A stretch of DNA of 64,000 nt from Flectonema sp. DT1601 (GCA_964019425.1 OZ025799.1:372001-436000); one strand, 5' to 3'; counted from the stretch's first letter, positions 14,835 through 49,651 are shown. Program-made: numbers and translations. Notes: generated from the letters alone by a model not told the origin.

Positions 14835-15229
14835 TTTATGTGCACAGCGAGCTACGCATCTGTCAAAAACAATTACTAAAATTCCTTTATAAGGATGTAT
14901 ACAAACATATACGTATCGTAAAGGTACACTTGAAAGGATATATTTTTTTTAATTTCATTTTTTTTTTTTTTTTTTTTTTCATGTCTTTTTGTTTCTTTTC
15001 TTCCACTTCAGAATAAAAAGACGTCGTCGATAAATCTGATAAATTTGAAGGCAGGCGGCCGCAATCAATCTTATGAAGCAGTTTGCTAAGTGCGAAGTGC
15101 TACCTATCACAGACGACTGTTGGAATTATAATCGACTTCAGAACAGCCAAATTGCTGCAGCATAAATCCATTTGATCGATGCACAGATGTGTTAACAACT
15201 TCAAGAACGCCTTCACCGAAAGTGAGTCA

Positions 15230-18200
15230 CTATTTCTGATTCTTTTCTTTGAGACGCTTCTTCGATTGTAATCTCTGCCAAGATTCAATACGCTTCTTAA
15301 GAAGGGGATTGTTGTATGGATTTCTGTACCGAATTTCTTTGTCTTCTGCTGTTCTCCAACCTTCACCCTTCTTTTCCCAGGCAGTCTCTTTAACAACGCT
15401 CCTTCTGAAGATATTTTGGACACGGTAAACTGCATCACTTGAATTTTTGACCTCATCACTCTTCTTTGTTCCTTCAAACTGTTGTATTTTGTTGGTTTAA
15501 TTATTCCTCGTTGCGAGATGGCCTAACTCTACAGTAAAGTAAAAATAGTAAACAAAAAAATAAACAAACCTTCTCACCATCGATGAATTTAAAGTATCTA
15601 CTATCCCTGAGAGGGTATCCTGGAAATAATGTGACTTCTTCTCCTGCAGGTGGTTCACGTTTTCCTTCATGACCAGGACCATTTTTGTGGTAGTACGTGT
15701 ATTCCCAAATTCCGAACTTATCAGGTGTGATAAGACCCATTCTAGCCTCAGAAGTGTTTGCTGTATTAGACAAGAAGTCGTCCCAGTATTCTTGCTTTTT
15801 AAGAAGAGAAGTTTCAATAGGTGAACGGTACTCCGGTTCAGAGACTTGACGCTCTTTAATAGGAGGTATTTCATTAATTTCTGAAGGAGGTTTTTCGAGG
15901 TTTGTCCATTCTCTCGGACTATCAGGATGAGCACGCATCCTTTCTGCAAGACTTTCTGTCATGTAACCTCTCATCTTCTCATTCGCATAGACATCGCGAA
16001 TAAGCTCCTCAGGTGGTAAGTTACCTTCTCCAATAACTGGGAATCTCCATGGAGTCTTTTCTTTTGCGATAGCTTCGTGATCGCGCCAACGTGTTGTGAC
16101 ACTTCCTCCGTTTGCTTCTATGGCCTCAATTGCTTTAGGATCTACACTCTCAACGTCGATATCGATTTTACCTTTAAACCATTTACAGTTATTAAATGTT
16201 ATCTTAATACCTGGCCAATGATAATCTCCAACACAACGAGACTCAACTAATGTGTTGGGTGTAATGACCTCGTTAGTATTAAGCATTCCTGTATCTATCC
16301 ACCATTGAATTTGATCAAGACCTACTTTTGTGTATAGTTCTTCAACAACAACATGTCCTTCTTTGGTACCCCATCCTGTGTATCCAAGCATGGGAATAAA
16401 TTTCCAATAACTGTAATGCGGTTGAGTGCTTTTCCTCCAGTAGTCTGCACCATGAACTTGTTCATTTGACAACATACTTTGAACCCAGTACGGGTTAGCT
16501 CCTTGAAATTTTCGCAATTTGTTATGTTTCCATGCGTGAGGTCTTCTTTCACCCGCAAATTTACGAGATTTCTCTCTCTGGTTTTGCGTCGCATGTCCCC
16601 AAAACTTGTATGCACTTTTTTTAAAAGACAATCTCCTGTTAAGGTACGCACCCGGATTACTATATTCCTTCCAAACATTGTGATCTTCACCTTCGGTCAC
16701 AATTTCTTCTGGCTTTGTTGCATATGATAATGGTCGTTGCATTGGAATATTTTTATGCCACCAAAATAATTGAGGAATTGGATGTTTCACCGGATCGTAT
16801 GATATTGGTTCAACTACTTGTTCCGTAAACCATTTTGGTTTTATTTTACCAGGTTCGCATTCTTCAAAAACTAATCTCAAGTCAAGCAAGTCATATGGAA
16901 TCATCCTTGATACCATTCCATTAATATTACCTGAACATGGTACCGCGTCTTCTCCATTTACATTCTTAACACCACCTGCGAAAGCTCCAGGAACATATGT
17001 CTCACCTTCTTTCATTTCTGATATTTTAATTTGATCATCAATAGTCTTGCTTGTTGATCTACTCCAGAACTGTTAGTGTGGTGTTGGTGTTATAATATTA
17101 TTATTAAACAGAGTAAGAGAAACTATTGTGTTCACGTGGTGAGAGAAACATTCCAATCAGCCGATGCTGTCTCATAATATTTTGTGATCTCAGCCTCCGT
17201 AGAGTCATCTAACCGCAATATTTTTGTCATCACGCAGGAAAGATGAGTAGTAGTTCGCAAAGAACACAAGGAACCAGACAGAGACAAGAGAAACATTCCA
17301 ATCAGCCGATGCTGTCTCATAATATTTTGTGATCTCAGCCTCCGTAGAGTCATCTAACCGCAATATTTTTATCATCACGCAGGAAAGATGAGAAGTAGTT
17401 CGCAAAGAACACAAGGAACCAGACAGAGACAAGAGAAACATTCCAATCAGCCGATGCTGTCTCATAATATTTTGTGATCTCAGCCTCCGTAGAGTCATCT
17501 AACCGCAATATTTTTGTCATCACGCAGGAAAGATGAGTAGTAGTTCGCAAAGAACACAAGGAACCAGACAGAGACAAGAGAAACATTCCAATCAGCCGAT
17601 GCTGTCTCATAATATTTTGTGATCTCAGCCTCCGTAGAGTCATCTAACCGCAATATTTTTATCATCACGCAGGAAAGATGAGAAGTAGTTCGCAAAGAAC
17701 ACAAGGAACCAGACAGAGACAAGAGAAACATTCCAATCAGCCGATGCTGTCTCATAATATTTTGTGATCTCAGCCTCCGTAGAGTCATCTAACCGCAATA
17801 TTTTTGTCATCACGCAGGAAAGATGAGAAGTAGTTCGCAAACAACACAAGGAACCAGACAGAGACAAGAGAAACATTCCAATCAGCCGATGCTGTCTCAT
17901 AATATTTTGTGATCTCAGCCTCCGTAGAGTCATCTAACCGCAATATTTTTGTCATCACGCAGGAAAGATGAGAAGTAGTTCGCAAAGAACACAAGGAACC
18001 AGACAGAGACAAGAGAAACATTCCAATCAGCCGATGCTGTCTCATAATATTTTGTGATCTCAGCCTCCGTAGAGTCATCTAACCGCAATATTTTTGTCAT
18101 CACGCAGGAAAGATGAGAAGTAGTTCGCAAAGAACACAAGGAACCAGACAGAGACAAGAGAAACATTCCAATCAGCCGATGCTGTCTCATAATATTTTGT

Positions 18201-19548
18201 GATCTCAGCCTCCGTAGAGTCATCTAACCGCAATATTTTTATCATCACGCAGGAAAGATGAGTAGTAGTTCGCAAAGAACACAAGGAACCAGACAGAGAC
18301 AAGAGAAACATTCCAATCAGCCGATGCTGTCTCATAATATTTTGTGATCTCAGCCTCCGTAGAGTCATCTAACCGCAATATTTTTGTCATCACGCAGGAA
18401 AGATGAGAAGTAGTTCGAAAAGAACACAAGGAACCGGACAGAGACAAGAGAAACATTCCAATCAGCCGATGCTGTCTCATAATATTTTGTGATCTCAGCC
18501 TCCGTAGAGTCATCTAACCGCAATATTTTTATCATCACGCAGGAAAGATGAGTAGTAGTTCGCAAAGAACACAAGGAACCAGACAGAGACAAGAGAAACA
18601 TTCCAATCAGCCGATGCTGTCTCATAATATTTTGTGATCTCAGCCTCCGTAGAGTCATCTAACCGCAATATTTTTATCATCACGCAGGAAAGATGAGTAG
18701 TAGTTCGCAAAGAACACAAGGAACCAGACAGAGACAAGAGAAACATTCCAATCAGCCGATGCTGTCTCATAATATTTTGTGATCTCAGCCTCCGTAGAGT
18801 CATCTAACCGCAATATTTTTGTCATCACGCAGGAAAGATGAGAAGTAGTTCGCAAAGAACACAAGGAACCAGACAGAGACAAGAGAAACATTCCAATCAG
18901 CCGATGCTGTCTCATAACATTTTGTGATCTCAGCCTCCGTAGAGTCATCTAACCGCAATATTTTTGTCATCACGCAGGAAAGATGAGAAGTAGTTCGCAA
19001 AGAACACAAGGAACCAGACAGAGACAAGAGAAACATTCCAATCAGCCGATGCTGTCTCATAATATTTTGTGATCTCAGCCTCCGTAGAGTCATCTAACCG
19101 CAATATTTTTATCATCACGCAGGAAAGATGAGTAGTAGTTCGCAAAGAACACAAGGAACCAGAAAGAGACACATTCCAATTAACTGATTTGCCATCACGC
19201 AGGGAGTTCATCAACTGCGCGTCTTTAACCGAAATAAAAATGTCTTTCAGTCAAATTTAAAAGAGTCATTTTCGCAAGCGAGTCAGTCGTTAACCGCAAA
19301 GTTGTTTTATCATCATTTAGTTATAGCATTCTAAGAAGAAACTTCTAAAACTTTCCACAGTCAAATCAGTATGAGAGGCAGGCGAATAGAACGTACGACA
19401 CGGATTTAGGGGCGAATTTAAGCATACAGATACAGTATCAAATAAAAGAATAGTAACATACTGTAGAGTAAGTTCCTCCAACACCGTGGGGACCCATCTG
19501 AGCGGCATTTGCTCCACTCACAAGCAAGGAGGTGTTCCTCCGCAACAT
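15230..19548 (-). CDS. MRPL15: Mitochondrial ribosomal protein uL15m, extended form, 3 exons (19548-19462, 17069-15570, 15478-15230), about 611 aa
   Basis: uL15m-like core LDQIQWWIDTGML..NEVITP..L...IDIDV....KAIEAIEANGGSVTT. Exon 1 encodes MLRRNTSLLVSGANAAQMGPHGVGGTYST followed by a GTATGT donor. The acceptor CACTAACAG at 17070 joins in phase 0. Intron 2 (15569-15479) is also phase 0. Confidence 0.8.
17141..19170 (-). repeat. Tandem array of 14 near-identical 145-bp units plus a degenerate 15th fragment (about 19171-19206)
   Basis: Exact 145-bp periodicity: the CTGA D box lies at 17157-17160 in the first unit and 19042-19045 in the last. Only a few recurring SNPs. Confidence 0.98.
17151..19125 (-). 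ncRNA. 14 copies of a box C/D snoRNA (about 77-90 nt each; first copy 17240-17151)
   Basis: Each unit on the minus strand reads TTCC-TGC-GTGATGA (C box)-YAAAAATATTGCGGTTAG-ATGA (D')-CTCTACGGAG hairpin-GCTGAGA (C'-like)-...TATTATGAGACAGCATCGG-CTGA (D)-TT-GGAA. The terminal TTCC/GGAA stem closes it, and C to D spans 77 nt. Confidence 0.8.
19243..19320 (-). ncRNA. Second, distinct box C/D snoRNA (single copy)
   Basis: ATGATGA C box (19316-19310), guide ACTTTGCGGTTAACGA, D' CTGA (19286-19283), TCGC-TT-GCGA hairpin, C'-like ATGACT, guide CTTTTAAATTTGA and D CTGA (19250-19247). C to D spans 70 nt. Confidence 0.72.
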
Positions 19549-19809: not shown

Positions 19810-21386
19810 TTACTTCTTCTTGGTGGCGGCAACCTTCTCGGTGGTCTTGGTAACCTTTCCAAGCATGACAACACCGTTACCTTCCATGATAGCGACACGG
19901 GAAAGACCCTCGCAGTTCTTGAAGGAGTCCACAACAAGTGGCTGTTGTGGGGTGAAGACGACCTCAGCCATCTCGTTAGCCTTCAGGCAGTGGGGTTCCT
20001 CGGCCTTCTTTCCTCCGGTTTCTTTACCCATCTTCCACACCAACTGAGTCATTCTCACGGCGGATCTTCCGGTACGCACGAAGCATACTGGAGTGTATCC
20101 AACCTTCAACTCACCAGGGTGGTCAAGGATCTGAACCTGAGCAGTGAAGGTTCCGGCCTCCTTCAAGGATCCGTCCTTCTTGTACACCATCACGTCTCCG
20201 GTACGAGGCATGTTGTCCTTGTTAAGTCCCTTGACGTTAAGACCAACGTTGTCTCCGGCCTTGGCCTCGTCAGTTCTCTTGTGGTGCATTTCACAGGTGA
20301 AAACCTTTCCAGTGCACGCGTTGGCGGCAGTGTGGGTTGGAAGGAAGAGAACTTCCTCACCAGGCTTGACAATTCCCTGCTCAACACGTCCAGTGATGAC
20401 ATCACCAACTCCCTTAATCTGTTTTTGGTGTTTGTTTGTTTGAATGAGCAGCAGCAGCAGCAGCAGAGCTCACAGAAAACGTGACACAAAAGATAACCAA
20501 AGAAAAGATTCCCACGGATCGATGCTGTGTAAAAAAAGGGACAGCTGACCCTGTTAAACAATTTAAAAGATTACCATACCTTGTAGACTCCTGAGACAGG
20601 CATTCTCATTGGGGCGTCGTTCTTACGCTCAGGCATACGAACCATGTCGTTCAAGGCATCTCTGAGGGTGTTGATGTGAAGCTTCTCATCAGCTCCGATG
20701 AGGACTTCCTGTCCCTTCCACCAGTCCATCTTCACAGACTTCTTCAACAAGTTGTCTCCGATCCATCCTGAGATTGGGATGACTGGAACAGACTTCTCAA
20801 CGAAGTCCTTCTTCCATCCAGTCTTGATAAGCATACTCTTCATCTCTTCCTTGATCTCAGTGAATCTCTCCTCCTTGTACTTGGCGACATCACAGTCCAT
20901 CTTGTTGATTCCGACGATCAACTGCTTTACTCCCAACAAGTTGATAAGACGAGCGTGCTGACGGGTCTGTCCCTGGATCTCTCCGGCCTTGTGGTTTCCA
21001 CGGGCGATGGCACTGACGAAGTTACCGTCAGCTGGAACCATCAGAAGAGCAACATCGGCCTGGGAGGCTCCAGTGATCATGTTCTTGATGAAATCTCTGT
21101 GTCCTGGGGCGTCGATGACGGTGTAGTGCCACTTGTCTGTGAAGAACTCCTTGGTGGTACAGGCGATGGTCACACCTCTCTCACGCTCTTCCTTCTGACG
21201 GTCCATGTAGAACGCGAAGGCGAACGACTGCTTTCCAAGACGCTCAGCCTCGGCCTTCAACTTCTCCATCTCACGCTCTGGGATTCCACCCAACTCGAAG
21301 AGAAGACGTCCGGTGGTGGTCGACTTTCCACTGTCAACGTGACCGCAGATCACGATGGACAAATGGTCCTTTCCGTCAGTTGCCAT
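19810..21386 (-). CDS. EFL: Elongation factor-like GTPase EFL, copy A, 2 exons (21386-20580, 20418-19810), 471 aa
   Basis: GHVDSGKSTTTGRLLFELGGIPERE, DAPGH and NKMD motifs plus the EFL-type segment ARGNHKAGEIQGQTRQHARL. Phase-0 GTATGG...AAAACAG intron of 161 nt. GC-biased codon usage. Confidence 0.93.
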
Positions 21387-21838
21387 TTTGATAAGAGTTT
21401 GAAAGCTTAGCTGTTGGGGTAGAGAACCAATTTACAAAGATACTTCTTACCAAATACCTTACAATGGTATCGACGACGCAAAGACTCTTCCAAGTGAAGA
21501 GGGGTTAGAATAAGCAAACCGCGACGAATACCTCAGAAATAATAGAAAATAAGACACAGATTAAGACTACCTAAACACATCTATAGTTGTGTAATTTATC
21601 AATTATACAACTACCTACAATAAGATAATGTTTTGTTTTGGTTTTGATTTGTTATTTATCAGAAGAAGGTTTCTAGTTAGTAAGAGAGACCCACCACGAT
21701 CGAAATTAGAAAATATAAAAACCCCCATTTATCATATTGACGGATGGTTAGTTGCAAAGATACCGATACCAATGCCAGTTTATATTAAAGTGAAACGGTT
21801 ACTTAACAAGACAGGTAAATGGTATATCAGTTAGATAG

Positions 21839-22483
21839 TTAAGTCCGTGGTAAGTTCTGTGGATCTTGTTCTCCCTCAGTGGTAGCTTCGGCAGCAGTTC
21901 TCTCCGCTTGGGTTTGTTCCGCCCAAGACACAACAGATATCCACACTTGCCTCACTGATACTAAAAGGAATGTCATCGGATCAGCAAACAATGATGCAAT
22001 CACCAAAATAACAATCTCAGCCAACACAGAACGACAATTCAAAGTGGGAGGAGTATTCGCTGATATAAATAAAGCACACCTGGATACACAATAAATAGCG
22101 AATATCCTCAACACCAACGACACCACTACGTAAGGTAAAGTGTTTACAATCATCCAAAGTATTGAAAAGAAACTGAAACCACTGAATACAAGATTAGTAA
22201 ACTCAAGTAGCATATTACTACTATTAGACGCGTTTAATAAAATCTGTTCCTCAGCAGCAGAAATACTAAAAGGACTCCATTCCAATCTCTCTGGTGTTAC
22301 TGAGGGAGGACGTCCATGGGATCTAACCACCCGATGTATACGTTCAGGAGATTGACTTCGTACTATTTCACTTCTTCTCCAATCAGTAATTTCTTCATCA
22401 TTATTATCATCTTCCAGATTACATATCACCTGTTCTGTTCCGATATTAAATGGAGGCCGAAAACGTACAACTGAAAAGTTCAT
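21839..22483 (-). CDS. Hypothetical membrane protein (3-4 hydrophobic segments)
   Basis: 214-aa ORF on the gene-bearing strand with hydrophobic helices. The true start is uncertain. Confidence 0.55.
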   Translation of the reverse strand: MNFSVVRFRPPFNIGTEQVICNLEDDNNDEEITDWRRSEIVRSQSPERIHRVVRSHGRPPSVTPERLEWSPFSISAAEEQILLNASNSSNMLLEFTNLVFSGFSFFSILWMIVNTLPYVVVSLVLRIFAIYCVSRCALFISANTPPTLNCRSVLAEIVILVIASLFADPMTFLLVSVRQVWISVVSWAEQTQAERTAAEATTEGEQDPQNLPRT

Positions 22484-23043
22484 TTCCTCTTGATCCTATA
22501 AAAAGAATTGGTTGCTTGATTTTCCACGTAATGAGTACATTAAAACCGTAAAGCCTGTCTGAACCTAACTGAAAAGCTAAATTATGGTTTGCGTGCTGCC
22601 CAACATTCCATTTTTGCTTTCTGAAACCATCCCTTTAGACTAAAAAATGAAATATCAGATCATTTAGTTACGTTATCTTTTAACAAGCAGTACCCGTTTC
22701 TTCTTCTTTTTTTTTTTTTTTTTTTTTCTCTTTGTTTTCTCAAATGCCGTTCTCTCTCCGTACGCACTGAGAGCACATGCTCTGCAGCAACTGATGACTC
22801 GAGCCATAGATCATAAAGTTAAAAAGGGACGAAAAGAAGGGAAGCAAAATAAAAGGTAAAGCGGGGGTAGAAAAGGAGAAGGGGGAAAATGAGTAAAATG
22901 AAGGAAAAAAAAGGAGAGACCAACGAAGCCAAATCGGATGTTTGTTACTATGATCTGCAGCTAATAAGGGAGTACTGCAGTGGCATTATTTGGTTCGTTG
23001 ATCCCCCAAACGAAATAAAATTGTTAAAAAGCTGTTGTGCTAC

Positions 23044-24634
23044 CTACTTCTTCTTGGTGGCGGCAACCTTCTCGGTGGTCTTGGTAACCTTTCCAAGCAT
23101 GACAACACCGTTACCTTCCATGATAGCGACACGGGAAAGACCCTCGCAGTTCTTGAAGGAGTCCACAACAAGTGGCTGTTGTGGGGTGAACACGACCTCA
23201 GCCATCTCGTTAGCCTTCAGGCAGTGGGGTTCCTCGGCCTTCTTTCCTCCGGTTTCTTTACCCATCTTCCACACCAACTGAGTCATTCTCACGGCGGATC
23301 TTCCGGTACGCACGAAGCATACTGGAGTGTATCCAACCTTCAACTCACCAGGGTGGTCAAGGATCTGAACCTGGGCAGTGAAGGTTCCGGCCTCCTTCAA
23401 GGATCCGTCCTTCTTGTACACCATCACGTCTCCGGTACGAGGCATGTTGTCCTTGTTAAGTCCCTTGACGTTAAGACCAACGTTGTCTCCGGCCTTGGCC
23501 TCGTCAGTTCTCTTGTGGTGCATTTCACAGGTGAAAACCTTTCCAGTGCACGCGTTGGCGGCAGTGTGGGTTGGAAGGAAGAGAACTTCCTCACCAGGCT
23601 TGACAATTCCCTGCTCAACACGTCCAGTGATGACATCACCAACTCCCTTAATCTGTTTTCGGTGTTTGTTTGTTTGTTTGAATGAGCAGCAGCAGCAGCA
23701 GCAGCAGCAGCAGAGTTCACAGAAAACGTGACACAAAAGATAACCAAAGAAAAGATTCCCACGGATCGATGCTGTTTAAAAAAAAGGGACAGCTAACCCT
23801 GTTAAACAATTCAAAAGATTACCATACCTTGTAGACTCCTGAGACAGGCATTCTCATTGGGGCGTCGTTCTTACGCTCAGGCATACGAACCATGTCGTTC
23901 AAGGCATCTCTGAGGGTGTTGATGTGAAGCTTCTCATCAGCTCCGATGAGGACTTCCTGTCCCTTCCACCAGTCCATCTTCACAGACTTCTTCAACAAGT
24001 TGTCTCCGATCCATCCTGAGATTGGGATGACTGGAACAGACTTCTCAACGAAGTCCTTCTTCCATCCAGTCTTGATAAGCATACTCTTCATCTCTTCCTT
24101 GATCTCAGTGAATCTCTCCTCCTTGTACTTGGCGACATCACAGTCCATCTTGTTGATTCCGACGATCAACTGCTTTACTCCCAACAAGTTGATAAGACGA
24201 GCGTGCTGACGGGTCTGTCCCTGGATCTCTCCGGCCTTGTGGTTTCCACGGGCGATGGCACTGACGAAGTTACCGTCAGCTGGAACCATCAGAAGAGCAA
24301 CATCGGCCTGGGAGGCTCCAGTGATCATGTTCTTGATGAAATCTCTGTGTCCTGGGGCGTCGATGACGGTGTAGTGCCACTTGTCTGTGAAGAACTCCTT
24401 GGTGGTACAGGCGATGGTCACACCTCTCTCACGCTCTTCCTTCTGACGGTCCATGTAGAACGCGAAGGCGAACGACTGCTTTCCGAGACGCTCAGCCTCG
24501 GCCTTCAACTTCTCCATCTCACGCTCTGGGATTCCACCCAACTCGAAGAGAAGACGTCCGGTGGTGGTCGACTTTCCACTGTCAACGTGACCGCAGATCA
24601 CGATGGACAAATGGTCCTTTCCGTCAGTTGCCAT
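23044..24634 (-). CDS. EFL: Elongation factor-like GTPase EFL, copy B, 2 exons (24634-23828, 23652-23044), 471 aa
   Basis: Protein matches copy A in the translated ORFs. Same intron position, 175 nt long. Confidence 0.93.
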
Positions 24635-24829
24635 TTTGATAAGAGTTTGAAAGTTATTCTGTCAGAGGAAAAGACTAAATATAAACTTGAAAAGAAAAAG
24701 AAAAAGAAACAAACAACCACAAGGTGTAAATGGTATCAACAAGAACAAAACAGCAGACTAAATACGTCAGTCGATCATAGATTGAAAAATCAAGACAACC
24801 GTCATCTAATATAATCAGAGGTTGATAAA

Positions 24830-29889: not shown

Positions 29890-32411
29890 TCACAAGTCTT
29901 GTAATAACTTTTGATACTTTCCCAAAGCCCACACAGGTAGAATCACCTGGTAGTAAGGATAATGAATACCGCAGGTTCCATTGAAGATACCTGCCACTGT
30001 TTTTTGACTCCAAGTGCCTCCAATCTGAGACGAAATGAGAAACTCTGCTGCCCTACGTATGGCGCTTAAATGAGTATTATTTGTTTGCTTGCGAGGGTAG
30101 GAAACTACAAGCGCCATTAGCGACAAAGCTGTTTGAACCGGTTGAGAACCCTCAGGTGCTTCAGTATATTGTCGAGAAGCACACGACTGAACGTGTTCTG
30201 ACCAACCGCCATCAGGTCTCTGTTTTGAGAGTAGAAATTGAACTCCTCTAACCACTCGATTGTCATTAACTGAAACACCAGCTGCTATCAACCCTTCAAT
30301 TCCGAATAGAGTTCCGTATGTGAAGCAAACACCCCACGATCCGTACCAGCTGCCATCAGTGTTTTGTAATTTAGTTATAACAGATAAACCACACTTGATA
30401 GCATCACTAATTTCACTGTGTCGATACCCCTGATAATAACTACTGTCTCTAAACGTACATAACGTCTGAATACAAGCACTAGTACACTCTGTGTATGTAT
30501 ACTCTACCATTATTCTACTGAAGACATCTGCTGGGTTGAGTAGTTCCATGTAAGAAGGTGAACGGCGAGATTCGTATGAACACCACGCTCCGTCATCAGA
30601 ATTTCTCAGAAGAAGAATTTGATCGACTCCAAGTAAGATACGATCTCTGTTAAGACTTTTATATAAAATAGCACATCGTAATCCTTCAGATGTGCAGTCA
30701 GAAACTGACCAATTTTGTTCAGCAGTTGAGAAGTTCCACGCTCCCAAAGGAGAGTCACGACAGTATTTCGATACATTTGGTGGGCATGTTAATACCTGAG
30801 CTGTGTCAATGTACTGTAATCCCAATTCAATACATTGTTGTTGTTGTTTTGAGGATTCTTCGTCAACAACACGGACTCCTTTTAAAGCCTGAAGGGTGAA
30901 TGAAGTATCCCAAAGCTGTGATCCATTGTAGCCGTTCATTTTCAAACCATCCTCACCAAGCCAAATATAATCAAACAGTCTCTTCTCTGATAGCTTTAGA
31001 TGATCACTTCTTCCTTCCGCACAGTAAATCGCAAGTAAGTTAAAAACTTTATTGACAGGACCGAGACAAATGAAATTTGTCGTAACGTCGTCATATTTCA
31101 CGTGGTTGATACAAACCTCTAATGATTTATTACGTAGGTATTTAATAGGATTCTTTTCATACAGGCTGAGGAAGAAGAATGCTACCTTCGCAATCAAATG
31201 AGTAGGATAATGAACATCTATTGGTGAGACTAAGTTCATAGTCGTTTTCCAATTCCTAACTTTTCGAGGGAAGAGTTCAGAACGAATTTCTTTAATAAGA
31301 TCTGTTTCCGGTGCGCAAAATCGTTTTCCGTACAAATATCCTAACGGTATATATACCATTCTGGTGTGACACCACATGCGACCTGTTTTTTTTTTTTTTT
31401 TTTAGTTTTATGCAGTCAATAAGTTTGCTAAGTATTTTATCATACCCGGATGAAATGGAAGCCACTTCGGCAACAGCCAAAGCTCTGGTGTCACTGGACG
31501 AATTCCATCCCAACTAAACAAGTTTAATATCGCCAGCCATGCTTTCCCCCAAGTTGGAATCATTTCTGTTGCATTGTGAAGAGGAGTATCACACTTTCTT
31601 AAGAATTGCAGCGCTGAGTCAGTGTAGCTATTTGAGTTATTTAACAGCAGTCTCATCGTTACATAAATCAAAGCAGTTCCAAATACTGTTGAGGGTCCTC
31701 GATCATGTAACCCAAACCCACCATCAGAATTCTGAACGTTATAAAGATACCTGAGAAACTCTAATCTGTTTTGGTTACTTGTTTTGGGATCGGTTGCAGA
31801 GGGGGGGTAGTCTGTTTTTTGAAAAAAAGTACATACCTGTGGGCTGCTGTAAAAATCTTATTCGGATCACAATCATTTATAATATAAACTGTTATTACTA
31901 AACCAGGAAGAAGAAATAACGGACCTCCATAATCGTTTGACCAGTGACCGTCGTCAGATTGTAATTTACTAATATGTTTGATAGCATGCTGTAGAGCTTC
32001 TTCAACATTAGTAGCGCGTGTAGTACAGTTGTTACTTCCGTGCGTGTGAACTCTTTCGATATAAGTTTGAGTTTGTTTGTTGGGATCATGTGTCCAGACT
32101 TGTCTTCCATTATGACAGTGAAGCGTCCACTTTTTAATTGAGTCATCATGTTGGTGTCTGATGATATCATTTCTAATTGGAGTGTATACTTCTTTATCAG
32201 ATTCTCTACTCCATGCTGCTACTTCTCTTCTCTTAGCAATTGAAATCAATAAGTACTTCAGAGGATACAACATGACTCCCATCATATATAATATTATTTG
32301 TGTGATAACAGATGGATTCAAGTCATTAGGTTGTTGTTGTTCCTCATGAAGTAATTTTTTTATATATTCCGCCTCTTCCGGGGTTTGAACTGCCGGAGAT
32401 TGAATTGCCAT
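29890..32411 (-). CDS. LSS: Oxidosqualene cyclase, lanosterol-synthase-type residues, 3 exons (32411-31837, 31765-31446, 31382-29890)
   Basis: GRQVW, LQSDDGHW..DYGGPLFLLPG, QNSDGGFGLH, HPGRMWCH, GYNGSQLWD, DCTSE and QW repeats (QNTDGSWYGSWG, QRPDGGW). Both introns restore the frame. Confidence 0.92.
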
Positions 32412-32703
32412 ATTGACTTAACTGTGAGAGGGTAAATAAACTCTGAAAATAGTTGATAAGCAGGAATGAAGCAAAGGTGGAAATTAGACAGTCAAGATGC
32501 TAGAAGTGAACCGTCATAACTGTAATGGATTACTCCAAAGAAAAGGGTGTTTTTTGTTTCTAATTACACCCCTTGGTGTAACCGTGTTCTTTATTTTGTT
32601 TTTTTGTTTTATTTCCATACTTTTTTTTTTATTTTTCGTTAAACGACTCATTCTGAATATTACTTTTATCATCTGGAGCGTACCTTGTTGTTCGGTAAAT
32701 TTA

Positions 32704-46556: not shown

Positions 46557-46856
46557 CGTAATAAGAAATCGAAAGAATAAATCAAATTGTTTTTTCATTT
46601 TCTACGATGTGTAATAATAAAGCTTGTGTCGCTATTATGTCAACGTGGTCTAACAATTAAATATCTCGTTCGTGTGTGTTTTTTTTTTTTTTTTTAAAAA
46701 CAAAACTCCCTCTTCCTCGCTTTTGTATACAATCTGTTCGTTGATTGCTTTTTTATTTGTTTTAACATTTTATAATTTGCAGGTCATTGACGTAGTGAAA
46801 TGTGATTTGCTAAAGTTGTCATGCCTCATGTTTTTTTTGATACGATGTTGTTATTA

Positions 46857-47360
46857 TTAGTTTCCTCCCTTTACAGCTTCTTTAAGCTCTGCTACCATCG
46901 ACGAAACCGAGGCTTTTGGTTCGTAACGTTGAATGAGTTTTCCATCTGGTCCTACCAGAAACTTTGCGAAGTTCCACTTAATTGGTTTAGATTCTTCAGC
47001 ACCAGAAATCGTGTTCTGCATGTACGTCCATGCTGGGTGAGCCTTGTCACCATTAACGTCAACCTTTTCAGTGATGACACCCGGAAAGTTGTATTTCTCA
47101 ACAGCAAAAGCTTTGATTTCAGCTGCTGTACCTGGCTCCTGACCTCCAAACTGGTTACATGGAAAAGCAATAATTTCAAACTTACCTGTCAAAGATGAGT
47201 CTTCATACAACGACTTGTACCCCTTGTACATGTCGTCTGTCAAGCCTCATTTAGATGCGACATTGGTGAGGATGAGAGCCTTGCCAGCGTACTTCGACAG
47301 ACTGTGAGTCTCCCCATCAATGGTAGTGATGCTGAATGCGTGCATGTTCTGTGTTGTCAT
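46857..47360 (-). CDS. GPX: Glutathione peroxidase, selenoprotein (copy 1), Sec TGA at 47249-47247
   Basis: Reading through the TGA gives MTTQNMHAFSITTIDGETHSLSKYAGKALILTNVASK-U-GLT...FPCNQFGGQEP...KWNFAKFL. The TGA is exactly at the peroxidatic position. Confidence 0.9.
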
Positions 47361-48042
47361 CTCTTTTGCTGTGTTCCTTTTTATTTATATTCCTTTTTTT
47401 TCTTGTCAAAAAAAAAGAGGAAATCCCCATTCGACCCCAAAAGAATGTTTACTCGTTCAGCTGACAAGCTACTTGTTCTGAATTTCATATTATCTGTTCT
47501 TGCTGACCTTTCTCTTTGTACCTATTCAGGTATGTCACAGTCGGGAACAATGTGGGTCATTTTTGAGACCTCTTGCGGATAAATGCAAGAAAGGAATCGG
47601 GAAATATTTACCCAAGAAGTTCCATTGACGAGGTAAACCAGACAAGGCACGCTGCAGACCAACTGTCTCTTACCATGTACAGAGGCCTTGACATGGCCTC
47701 ACCACAGCAGATTTCACTGTCTGGTGGGTAATAGTTTCGAGCTGCAGCTTGAAACGCCGTGGTACTTCGGCTCTGTCACTATTGCCTGTGCCAGCTGAGC
47801 GGCCAACAACACCAATCCTTTTCAGGCACATCGATAGTAGATAAATAAAATTAACCCCTCGGGGAGATTGATAATTAGACACAATAAGTATCCACTTCAC
47901 AAGAGTTTTTCTTCTGAATTTGTCAGAGCAAAAAAAGAAAGAAAAAAAAATTTAAATAATTTGAAGCGCAGTAATCAGAAGCTAAACACCGCAACAGAAA
48001 ATCAAAGAAATAGAATCCTATTACTTTCTACAGACAGCTTCT

Positions 48043-48554: not shown

Positions 48555-48862
48555 ATTAATCATTATAGTTATCTGCGGCAAACATCATTGTTAGTTGTAA
48601 TTACAAAAGAAAGTAGAAAAAAAAAGAGCACATGTTTCACTCATATCAACTTATAGTACTTAATTATTAGAAATACAGAAACCAGTCAGAGAAGTGTCTT
48701 ATGGTTTTGTTCATTCAAGAGTCAGGTGTTGATGTGTTTGTTGCTTTGCATTTTCGTGTTCCTTTCCGTGGTAATAACAATAAAAGGTTTGCTAAAAGTT
48801 GTAAATTAGTTTAGCATAGGTTTCTACTTTCATGTTTTCTTTTTGATACGATGTTGTTATTA

Positions 48863-49651
48863 TTAGTTTCCTCCCTTTACAGCTTCTTTTAGCTCTGCTA
48901 CCATCGACGAAACCGAGTCTTTTGGTCCGTAACGCTGAATGAGTTTTCCATCTGGTCCTACCAGGAACTTTGAGAAATTCCATTTAATTGATTTAGTACC
49001 TAAGATCCCAGGGATCTTGTTCTGCATGTACGTCCATGCTGGGTGAGCCTTGTCACCATTAACGTTAACCTTTTCAGTGATGACACCCGGAAAGTTGTAC
49101 TTCTCAACAGCAAAAGCTTTGATTTCAGCTGCTGTACCTGGCTCCTGACCTCCAAACTGGTTACATGGAAAAGCAATAATTTCAAACTTACCTGTCAAAG
49201 ATGAGTCTTCATACAACGACTTGTACCCCTTGTACATGTCGTCTGTCAAGCCTCATTTAGATGCGACATTGGTGAGGATGAGAGCCTTGCCAGCGTACTT
49301 CGACAGACTTTGAGTCTCCCCATCAATGGTAGTGATGCTGAATTCATGCATGTTCTGTGTTGTCATTTGTTTTTACTGTTCTCTTTTGTTTATTTAATTA
49401 AGTTTTTTCGTTCTCTTGTTATTTTAAAAGAAAAAAAGGGGATGTGAAATAGAATTTTTAATTTTCAAAAAAAAAAAGACAACCAAGAAGGGATATAGAA
49501 ATTTTCTTAAAGAAAGAACAAAAAAAAAACAGAAAAATAAAATTGTTAAAACCTTAGTCATCAGATCCTCTGATTGATTTGTAAAAACAAGCCCCCCAAC
49601 TGCAGCAAATGCAACGCCTGCAGCAGCAAGCAGTTTGGCCTTGTAAGTCAT
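48863..49651 (-). CDS. GPX: Glutathione peroxidase, selenoprotein (copy 2), Sec TGA at 49255-49253, with probable hydrophobic first exon 49651-49553
   Basis: NVASK-U-GLT, FPCNQFGGQEP and KWNFSKFL motifs. Upstream exon MTYKAKLLAAAGVAFAAVGGLVF...MTK joins in phase 0 at ACAACACAG (49355). Confidence 0.85.

Follow-up and report, generated by a model that had tools for sequence, protein, structure and literature searches.

A 14-copy tandem array of a candidate box C/D snoRNA gene in the predicted first intron of a uL15m gene

We analysed a 64,000-nt stretch of DNA recorded under Flectonema sp. DT1601 (GCA_964019425.1, OZ025799.1:372001-436000), referred to here as the window, which is most likely nuclear DNA of a diplonemid, a marine protist of the Euglenozoa. 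On its minus strand lies a gene for the mitochondrial ribosomal protein uL15m, and the predicted first intron of this gene holds 14 head-to-tail copies of a 145-bp unit that resembles a gene for a small nucleolar RNA (snoRNA) of the box C/D class. The features of the locus, in the order of transcription, are as follows.

19462..19548, minus strand: uL15m exon 1, 87 nt encoding 29 amino acids (MLRRNTS...GGTYST) with a presequence-like N-terminus; top match of a hidden Markov model (HMM), and alignment
17070..19461, minus strand: intron 1, 2,392 nt, GTATGT...CAG, GT-AG type, phase 0; predicted from homology
19247..19316, minus strand: diverged single box C/D snoRNA candidate, 70 nt from C box ATGATGA to D box CTGA
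19126..19205 (approximate), minus strand: decayed, internally deleted copy of the unit, with C box GTGATGG and TTAA at the D box position
17142..19171, minus strand: whole tandem array, 14 x 145 bp, from Tandem Repeats Finder (TRF)
19036..19125, minus strand: snoRNA part of array copy 1, terminal stem included; 77 nt from the C box (19118) to the D box (19042)
17151..17240, minus strand: array copy 14, with 87 nt between the end of its D box and the 3' splice site
15570..17069, minus strand: uL15m exon 2, 500 amino acids; PF00828, E 6.7e-12
15569-15479, minus strand: intron 2, 91 nt
15229..15478, minus strand: uL15m exon 3, from the three-exon model

The uL15m gene and its first intron

The host gene had been named as uL15m in a prediction made from the sequence alone, and the PF00828 match, comparison with solved structures and full-length alignment with homologues all bear this out. 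Trypanosome uL15m chains are among the best relatives of exon 2 with solved structures (E ~1e-18). Among 3,287 candidates, eight homologues share 44-53% identity with the protein at E <=5e-115; one of these is from Diplonema papillatum, and one labelled Hpha we take to be from Hemistasia. Exon 1 was located using an HMM built on the first 35 amino acids of five full-length homologues. When this HMM was run against the six frames of the window, exon 1 was the sole significant match (E 1.2e-4, with the runner-up at 0.9). Joining 19548-19462, 17069-15570 and 15478-15229 produces an in-frame protein of 611 amino acids with a single terminal stop, and this protein aligns over residues 1-604 with the D. 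papillatum homologue P0005. Aligned with five homologues, it is matched from residue 1 in three cases and from residue 48 in two. Intron 1 begins with the donor GTATGT at 19461 and, in phase 0, closes at 17070 with the acceptor ...CACTAACAG. The predicted 2,392-nt intron is well supported by homology, and the exon HMM and the 611-residue join agree with the original prediction that the array lies between an 87-nt exon and an in-frame acceptor at 17070.

The 3' ends of the cis introns at 17070, 15479, 20419 and ~23653 (minus strand) are rich in C and A, while the presumed trans-splice acceptors are more T-rich. The C/A share of the last bases is 0.70 at 17070, 0.73-0.78 at three other cis acceptors (one measured one base off) and 0.32-0.49 at three presumed trans-splice acceptors, a difference that could help the cell to distinguish the two kinds of acceptor. 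The acceptor at 17070 is preceded by a CTAAC motif; this motif is absent from the other cis acceptors examined, which are C/A-rich, and so may not serve as a branch point. We also considered trans-splicing at 17070 alone and judged it unlikely, since the conserved N-terminus would be lost and since the acceptor is like the C/A-rich cis acceptors. The database gene calls for the window protein (P0001) and for two relatives (P0006 and P0009) lack the N-terminal part, and the P0001 call is without exons 1 and 3. The genes of the two relatives may have an early intron too.

Anatomy of the array and its neighbours

TRF reports a period of 145, 14.0 copies and 98% matches over 17142-19171 on the minus strand, which matches the location and copy number originally predicted. 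The array is made up of 13 full units followed by a 14th, in which the spacer passes into unique sequence, each unit comprising a snoRNA part of ~88 nt and a 57-nt spacer that is 74% pyrimidine and contains no AG. Read on the host-gene strand, the unit presents a C box, a guide ending TTGCGGTTAG, a D' box (ATGA), a hairpin (CTC-TACG-GAG, with a UACG loop), a C' box (AGGCTGA), a guide ending GACAGCATCGG and a D box (CTGA), where the D' and C' boxes were assigned by eye. In unit 1 the C box GTGATGA occupies 19118-19112, the D' box 19093-19090, the C'-like box 19081-19075 and the D box 19045-19042. These may be compared with the consensus sequences RUGAUGA for box C and CUGA for box D (PMC8162545; this and the other papers given by PMC number are drawn on in part). 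C and D boxes are perfect in all 14 array copies and in the diverged copy. At the level of sequence, the unit agrees with the geometry of a kink-turn, which has a 3-nt bulge, tandem G-A pairs and stem I in register: TTCCTG and TTGGAA at the two ends of the snoRNA part can form a terminal stem with five of six pairs in the kink-turn register.

We compared this anatomy with dinucleotide shuffles of the unit, in a test devised after the unit had been seen. A C box, a D box and a stem with at least 5/6 pairs in register occurred together in 52 of 20,000 shuffles, and the C and D boxes alone in 923 of 20,000 (4.6%). With array copies 2-14 excluded, 21 C...D pairings were listed for the window; the unit alone reaches 5/6 stem pairs, and the other 20 reach 3/6 at most. 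The box C/D anatomy of the original prediction is upheld by the boxes and by the terminal stem in register. We also considered a shorter snoRNA of 44 nt that would end at the first CTGA, and rejected it because it has no in-register stem (by eye) and its guide is at chance (87 of 200 shuffles).

Variation among the units is confined to six positions, two of them with recurring polymorphisms and four with private changes. All six lie outside the boxes and guides, which are identical in all 14 copies. The 90-nt snoRNA part occurs in three variants among the 14 copies, with a mean of 0.67 differences, and the 13 full units fall into seven haplotypes. Position 15 of the unit is C in eight copies and T in six, and copy 2 has a private G at position 63. 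Every unit junction carries a 101-nt AG-free stretch spanning the pyrimidine-rich spacer (for example, 19052-18951, minus strand), and such stretches would limit cryptic acceptors behind the spacer. A stretch as long was found in 92 of 5,000 shuffles in a post hoc test.

The diverged copy, which lies ~200 nt upstream of the array, has the same D'-hairpin-C' spacing as the unit and is otherwise divergent. Its C, D' (CTGA) and D boxes are perfect, its hairpin has a CTTG loop and is placed as in the unit, its C' box reads AAAATGA (D' and C' again by eye), and its terminal stem has three of six pairs in register. The 9-mer TTGCGGTTA stands just before the D' box in both the diverged copy and the array unit, whereas their D guides differ. 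This 9-mer occurs 15 times in the window, every time in these snoRNA genes. When the 1,081 pairs formed by 47 C-box sites were compared, with four overlapping or duplicated-gene pairs set aside, a 9-mer was shared only by the unit/diverged pair and by one chance pair. Array, diverged copy and relic are all on the host-gene strand; a search of the window with a sequence-only model found no further paralogue (next match E 0.35). The count of about 15 snoRNAs in the original prediction holds in that the intron contains 15 C/D candidates; the 15th, however, is the diverged gene (19316-19247) with its different D guide and not a copy of the array. Judged from sequence, diverged copy, relic and array together fit a history in which a snoRNA gene arises, diverges, is amplified and decays.

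We have high confidence in the origin of the unit from a box C/D snoRNA gene. It is also probable, at a lower level of confidence, that each of the 14 head-to-tail copies in the uL15m intron is cut out as a methylation-guiding snoRNA of ~85 nt. Support for this reading comes from the boxes, the kink-turn register, the D'-hairpin-C' core, an older paralogue with the same D' guide and the decayed relic.

Family matches, guides and possible targets

A search against RNA families, suggested as a check along with the original prediction, returned no Rfam family at its gathering threshold. Below threshold, the weak matches are mostly to C/D families on the host strand (three of three for the unit, 11 of 16 for the diverged copy). 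The unit scores 17.7 bits against snR79 (threshold 55) and 18.5 bits against SNORD44 (threshold 40). No tRNA genes were found in the window. In the Trypanosoma brucei cluster TB10Cs1 (PMC3273796 supplement), an 11-letter match to the D' guide region of the unit lies in the spacer after TB10Cs1C4, outside the annotated RNA. This match is probably due to chance.

In a box C/D snoRNA, a guide element of ~10-21 nt that lies before D or D' pairs with the target according to the fifth-nucleotide rule. We tested five guide assignments on six sets of proxy ribosomal DNA (rDNA), which are eukaryotic, non-diplonemid and unclassified and come from contamination in prokaryote assemblies. A eukaryotic large-subunit (LSU) rRNA motif is present in at least 29 stretches (L001-L029) of prokaryote genome records; all eight of those checked match eukaryotic rRNA families, three of them with group I introns. 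One of the five guides, the D guide of the diverged copy, goes beyond chance on the proxy rDNA. It pairs over 12 bp (one G-U) in the canonical register near LSU position 113, in the 5' region, in three of the six proxy sets, and this match is equalled by 4 of 2,000 shuffles and by one among the window's 579 other CTGA sites. The guide shared by the unit and the diverged copy provides three leads. One is the conserved LSU site discussed below, another is a small-subunit (SSU) site in L025 with two G-U pairs, and the third is a CCGCAA core in the 5' SSU of Leishmania major (counted by eye; a six-letter match is within chance). This core adjoins a mapped methylation at position 115 that has no assigned snoRNA (PMC13487219 supplements). 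Cytosolic rRNA is the most likely class of target for 2'-O-methylation.

Several of the results weigh against the array being a set of working guide RNAs. Five guides were tried, and the 12-bp LSU match, as the best result among them, stands at roughly 1%; its site differs in three of the six proxies, which are of non-diplonemid origin. The amplified unit itself has no convincing target on the proxy rDNA, its D guide being at chance (85 of 200 shuffles) and its D' guide marginal (77 of 2,000), and the D' guide of the diverged copy is likewise at chance (178 of 200). The shared guide does pair over 8-9 bp with a conserved LSU site, TAACCGCA, a result that is circular in that the loci were fetched by that motif. 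To these must be added the Rfam result, where the best sub-threshold matches of the unit have E values of 0.063 and 0.49, and a whole-file motif search of the Leishmania/T. brucei snoRNA table (PMC13487219 supplement 11), which found no matching guide. Finally, the D' (AUGA) and C' boxes of the unit are degenerate, and the invariance of the guides is weak evidence with only six variable sites overall.

Other searches for targets gave little. The idea that the two unit guides address adjacent 18S sites yielded 28 metagenome matches, none of which aligns to rDNA, and was rejected for that collection, which may lack the rRNA of this lineage. Scans of viral contigs for rDNA found no locus in one case and seven in another, the seven having one shared sequence context unlike rRNA. 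A primer search found nothing, and no guide complement longer than 12 nt occurs elsewhere in the window. The supplements examined of PMC10161547 and PMC9082867 contain no diplonemid rRNA sequence.

Processing, alternatives and comparison with known systems

If the array yields individual guide RNAs, intron 1 would be transcribed within a polycistronic unit and then cis-spliced. Snu13, Nop56/58 and fibrillarin, the last of which is encoded by D. papillatum (PMC10161547 supplement), would assemble on each C/D motif. An endonuclease would cut the pyrimidine-rich 57-nt spacers and exonucleases would trim the products to RNAs of ~85 nt, as proposed for trypanosome clusters, and the D' and D guides would direct methylation. 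The array likely arose by local duplication of a snoRNA gene followed by expansion through unequal exchange. Its 14-fold copy number may be mutational, because dozens of D. papillatum genes carry tandem repeats at their 5' end or within intron 1 (PMC10161547). Endonucleolytic release of about 15 RNAs, which the original prediction foresaw, would be a reasonable course of events. That prediction had further proposed that guide dose is coupled to uL15m. This is unsupported: co-transcription of diplonemid genes in groups of as many as 100 is probable, and in D. papillatum sequence close to 5' ends is often amplified in tandem (PMC10161547).

The same tendency to local amplification favors the strongest alternative, in which neutral local tandem amplification caught up a genuine snoRNA gene. 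Exonucleolytic trimming would then bring only one or two copies to maturity, either the final array copy, close to the 3' splice site, or the diverged gene that comes first, and the others would be passengers. One D. papillatum gene with such repeats has 12 degenerate copies (PMC10161547), the window has other recent tandem duplicates (98.6% identity over 1,613 nt and 93.7% over 572 nt), a decayed relic lies beside the array, and 87 nt separate the final D box from the acceptor. The boxes and guides are nevertheless intact in every one of the 14 copies, and processing of polycistronic snoRNA precursors is known from euglenozoan relatives (PMC3273796). We regard this alternative as unlikely; it agrees with individual release of all 14 copies on the identity of the gene and differs from it solely in yield.

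A more speculative idea, which we consider doubtful, is that the 2.2-kb excised intron acts as a multivalent scaffold of small nucleolar ribonucleoproteins with 15 C/D modules, or that the amplified guide acts on a diplonemid-specific RNA instead of rRNA. Were this so, the AG-free, pyrimidine-rich stretches of 101 nt would illustrate the way in which an organism that uses trans-splicing protects a cis intron from cryptic acceptors. There is also little probability that the array is a non-functional minisatellite with chance boxes, or that its copy number is an assembly artefact. Such an explanation can draw on the Rfam and proxy rDNA results for the unit and on the C and D boxes being found in 4.6% of shuffles, but the in-register stem, the D'-hairpin-C' core and the guide in common with a diverged neighbor speak against chance boxes, and seven haplotypes in 13 full units with two recurring polymorphic sites speak against a simple copy-paste error. 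Least probable is an intron trimmed at its ends and left uncut internally as a stable RNA of ~2.2 kb with up to 15 C/D motifs, a multivalent snoRNA-related long non-coding RNA (sno-lncRNA): human sno-lncRNAs arise from two snoRNAs in one intron (PMC11028025), Ostreococcus accumulates multi-snoRNA precursors (PMC7671301) and the spacer has no demonstrated cleavage signal, but trypanosomes excise single snoRNAs from clusters with pyrimidine/GU-rich spacers (PMC3273796).

The original prediction had presented the combination of intron hosting with a polycistronic cluster as a new mode, which it is not. Several snoRNA genes per intron are described for rice and Drosophila (PMC2780460), clusters 3 and 5 of Ostreococcus tauri are two intronic snoRNA clusters in which the intronic and polycistronic modes are combined (PMC7671301), and intronic clusters in Chlamydomonas are the subject of Chen et al. 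2008, cited by title in PMC7671301. Under the homology-based gene model the locus likewise has at least two snoRNA candidates in one predicted intron on the host strand, and, as in those clusters, several snoRNA genes share a host intron and would have to be released from a polycistronic piece. Unlike them, it has one gene 14 times over, at ~99% identity and with a fixed 145-nt period, in a euglenozoan lineage. It is the single-gene 14-fold array that is new; the multi-snoRNA intron layout itself is already known.

Like the clusters of T. brucei, Leishmania and Euglena gracilis (reiterated clusters in the last being reported by Moore and Russell 2012, as cited in PMC7671301 and PMC2784804), the array is tandemly reiterated, has short spacers rich in pyrimidine/GU and a standard C/D anatomy, and would be released by endonucleolytic cutting, which in trypanosomes is ascribed to a still unidentified endonuclease (PMC3273796). 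Trypanosome clusters, however, are mostly intergenic, mix C/D with H/ACA genes and have precursors that are trans-spliced and polyadenylated (PMC3273796), whereas the array is C/D only as far as found and sits between two coding exons in a predicted cis intron rather than in the intergenic or untranslated-region (UTR) location of the trypanosomatid type. Clusters of that type also intersperse C/D genes with single-hairpin AGA-box genes; the spacer of the array contains no AG. Mammalian SNORD113-116 and Bsr (PMC11028025) resemble it in that one C/D gene has been amplified locally in tandem, with copies that are homogenised and edges that decay. They differ in that their snoRNAs lie in repeated introns of non-coding imprinted hosts, while here there is one intron of a protein-coding gene and no exon repeats of the SNORD115/116 type were seen. 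In the D. papillatum genes bounded by repeats (PMC10161547), too, the amplified element is a short segment at the gene's 5' end or in intron 1; it consists there of degenerate UTR or exon fragments, and the repeat of the array is an intact RNA gene candidate.

The word snoRNA is absent from the main text and the supplements examined of the D. papillatum genome paper (PMC10161547), a scope that leaves out its structural-RNA supplement. A search of titles and abstracts, with most subscription journals outside it, found no literature on diplonemid snoRNAs or on intronic snoRNAs of Euglena. Within the literature searched, the genes described here would, if expressed, be the first diplonemid snoRNA candidates. 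On the same condition the Euglenozoa, known for intergenic reiterated clusters, would host arrays in cis introns too, and the array would offer a natural test of the euglenozoan snoRNA-releasing endonuclease, with 14 near-identical substrates bearing marker polymorphisms.

Elsewhere in the window, two elongation-factor genes with GTP_EFTU / eEF1A Pfam domains, presumably EFL, occupy 19811-21409 and 23045-24656 (minus strand). They are 98.6% identical over 1,613 nt, each has a CTG repeat in an intron, and an unrelated open reading frame (21839-22495) lies between them; the nearer copy is on the strand of uL15m and ends ~260 nt upstream of it. Another tandem gene duplicate, 46826-47391 and 48830-49399, is 93.7% identical over 572 nt and carries a motif that we take to resemble glutathione peroxidase. 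An intron-split squalene/oxidosqualene cyclase gene (PF13243) is found at 29890-32417 on the minus strand.

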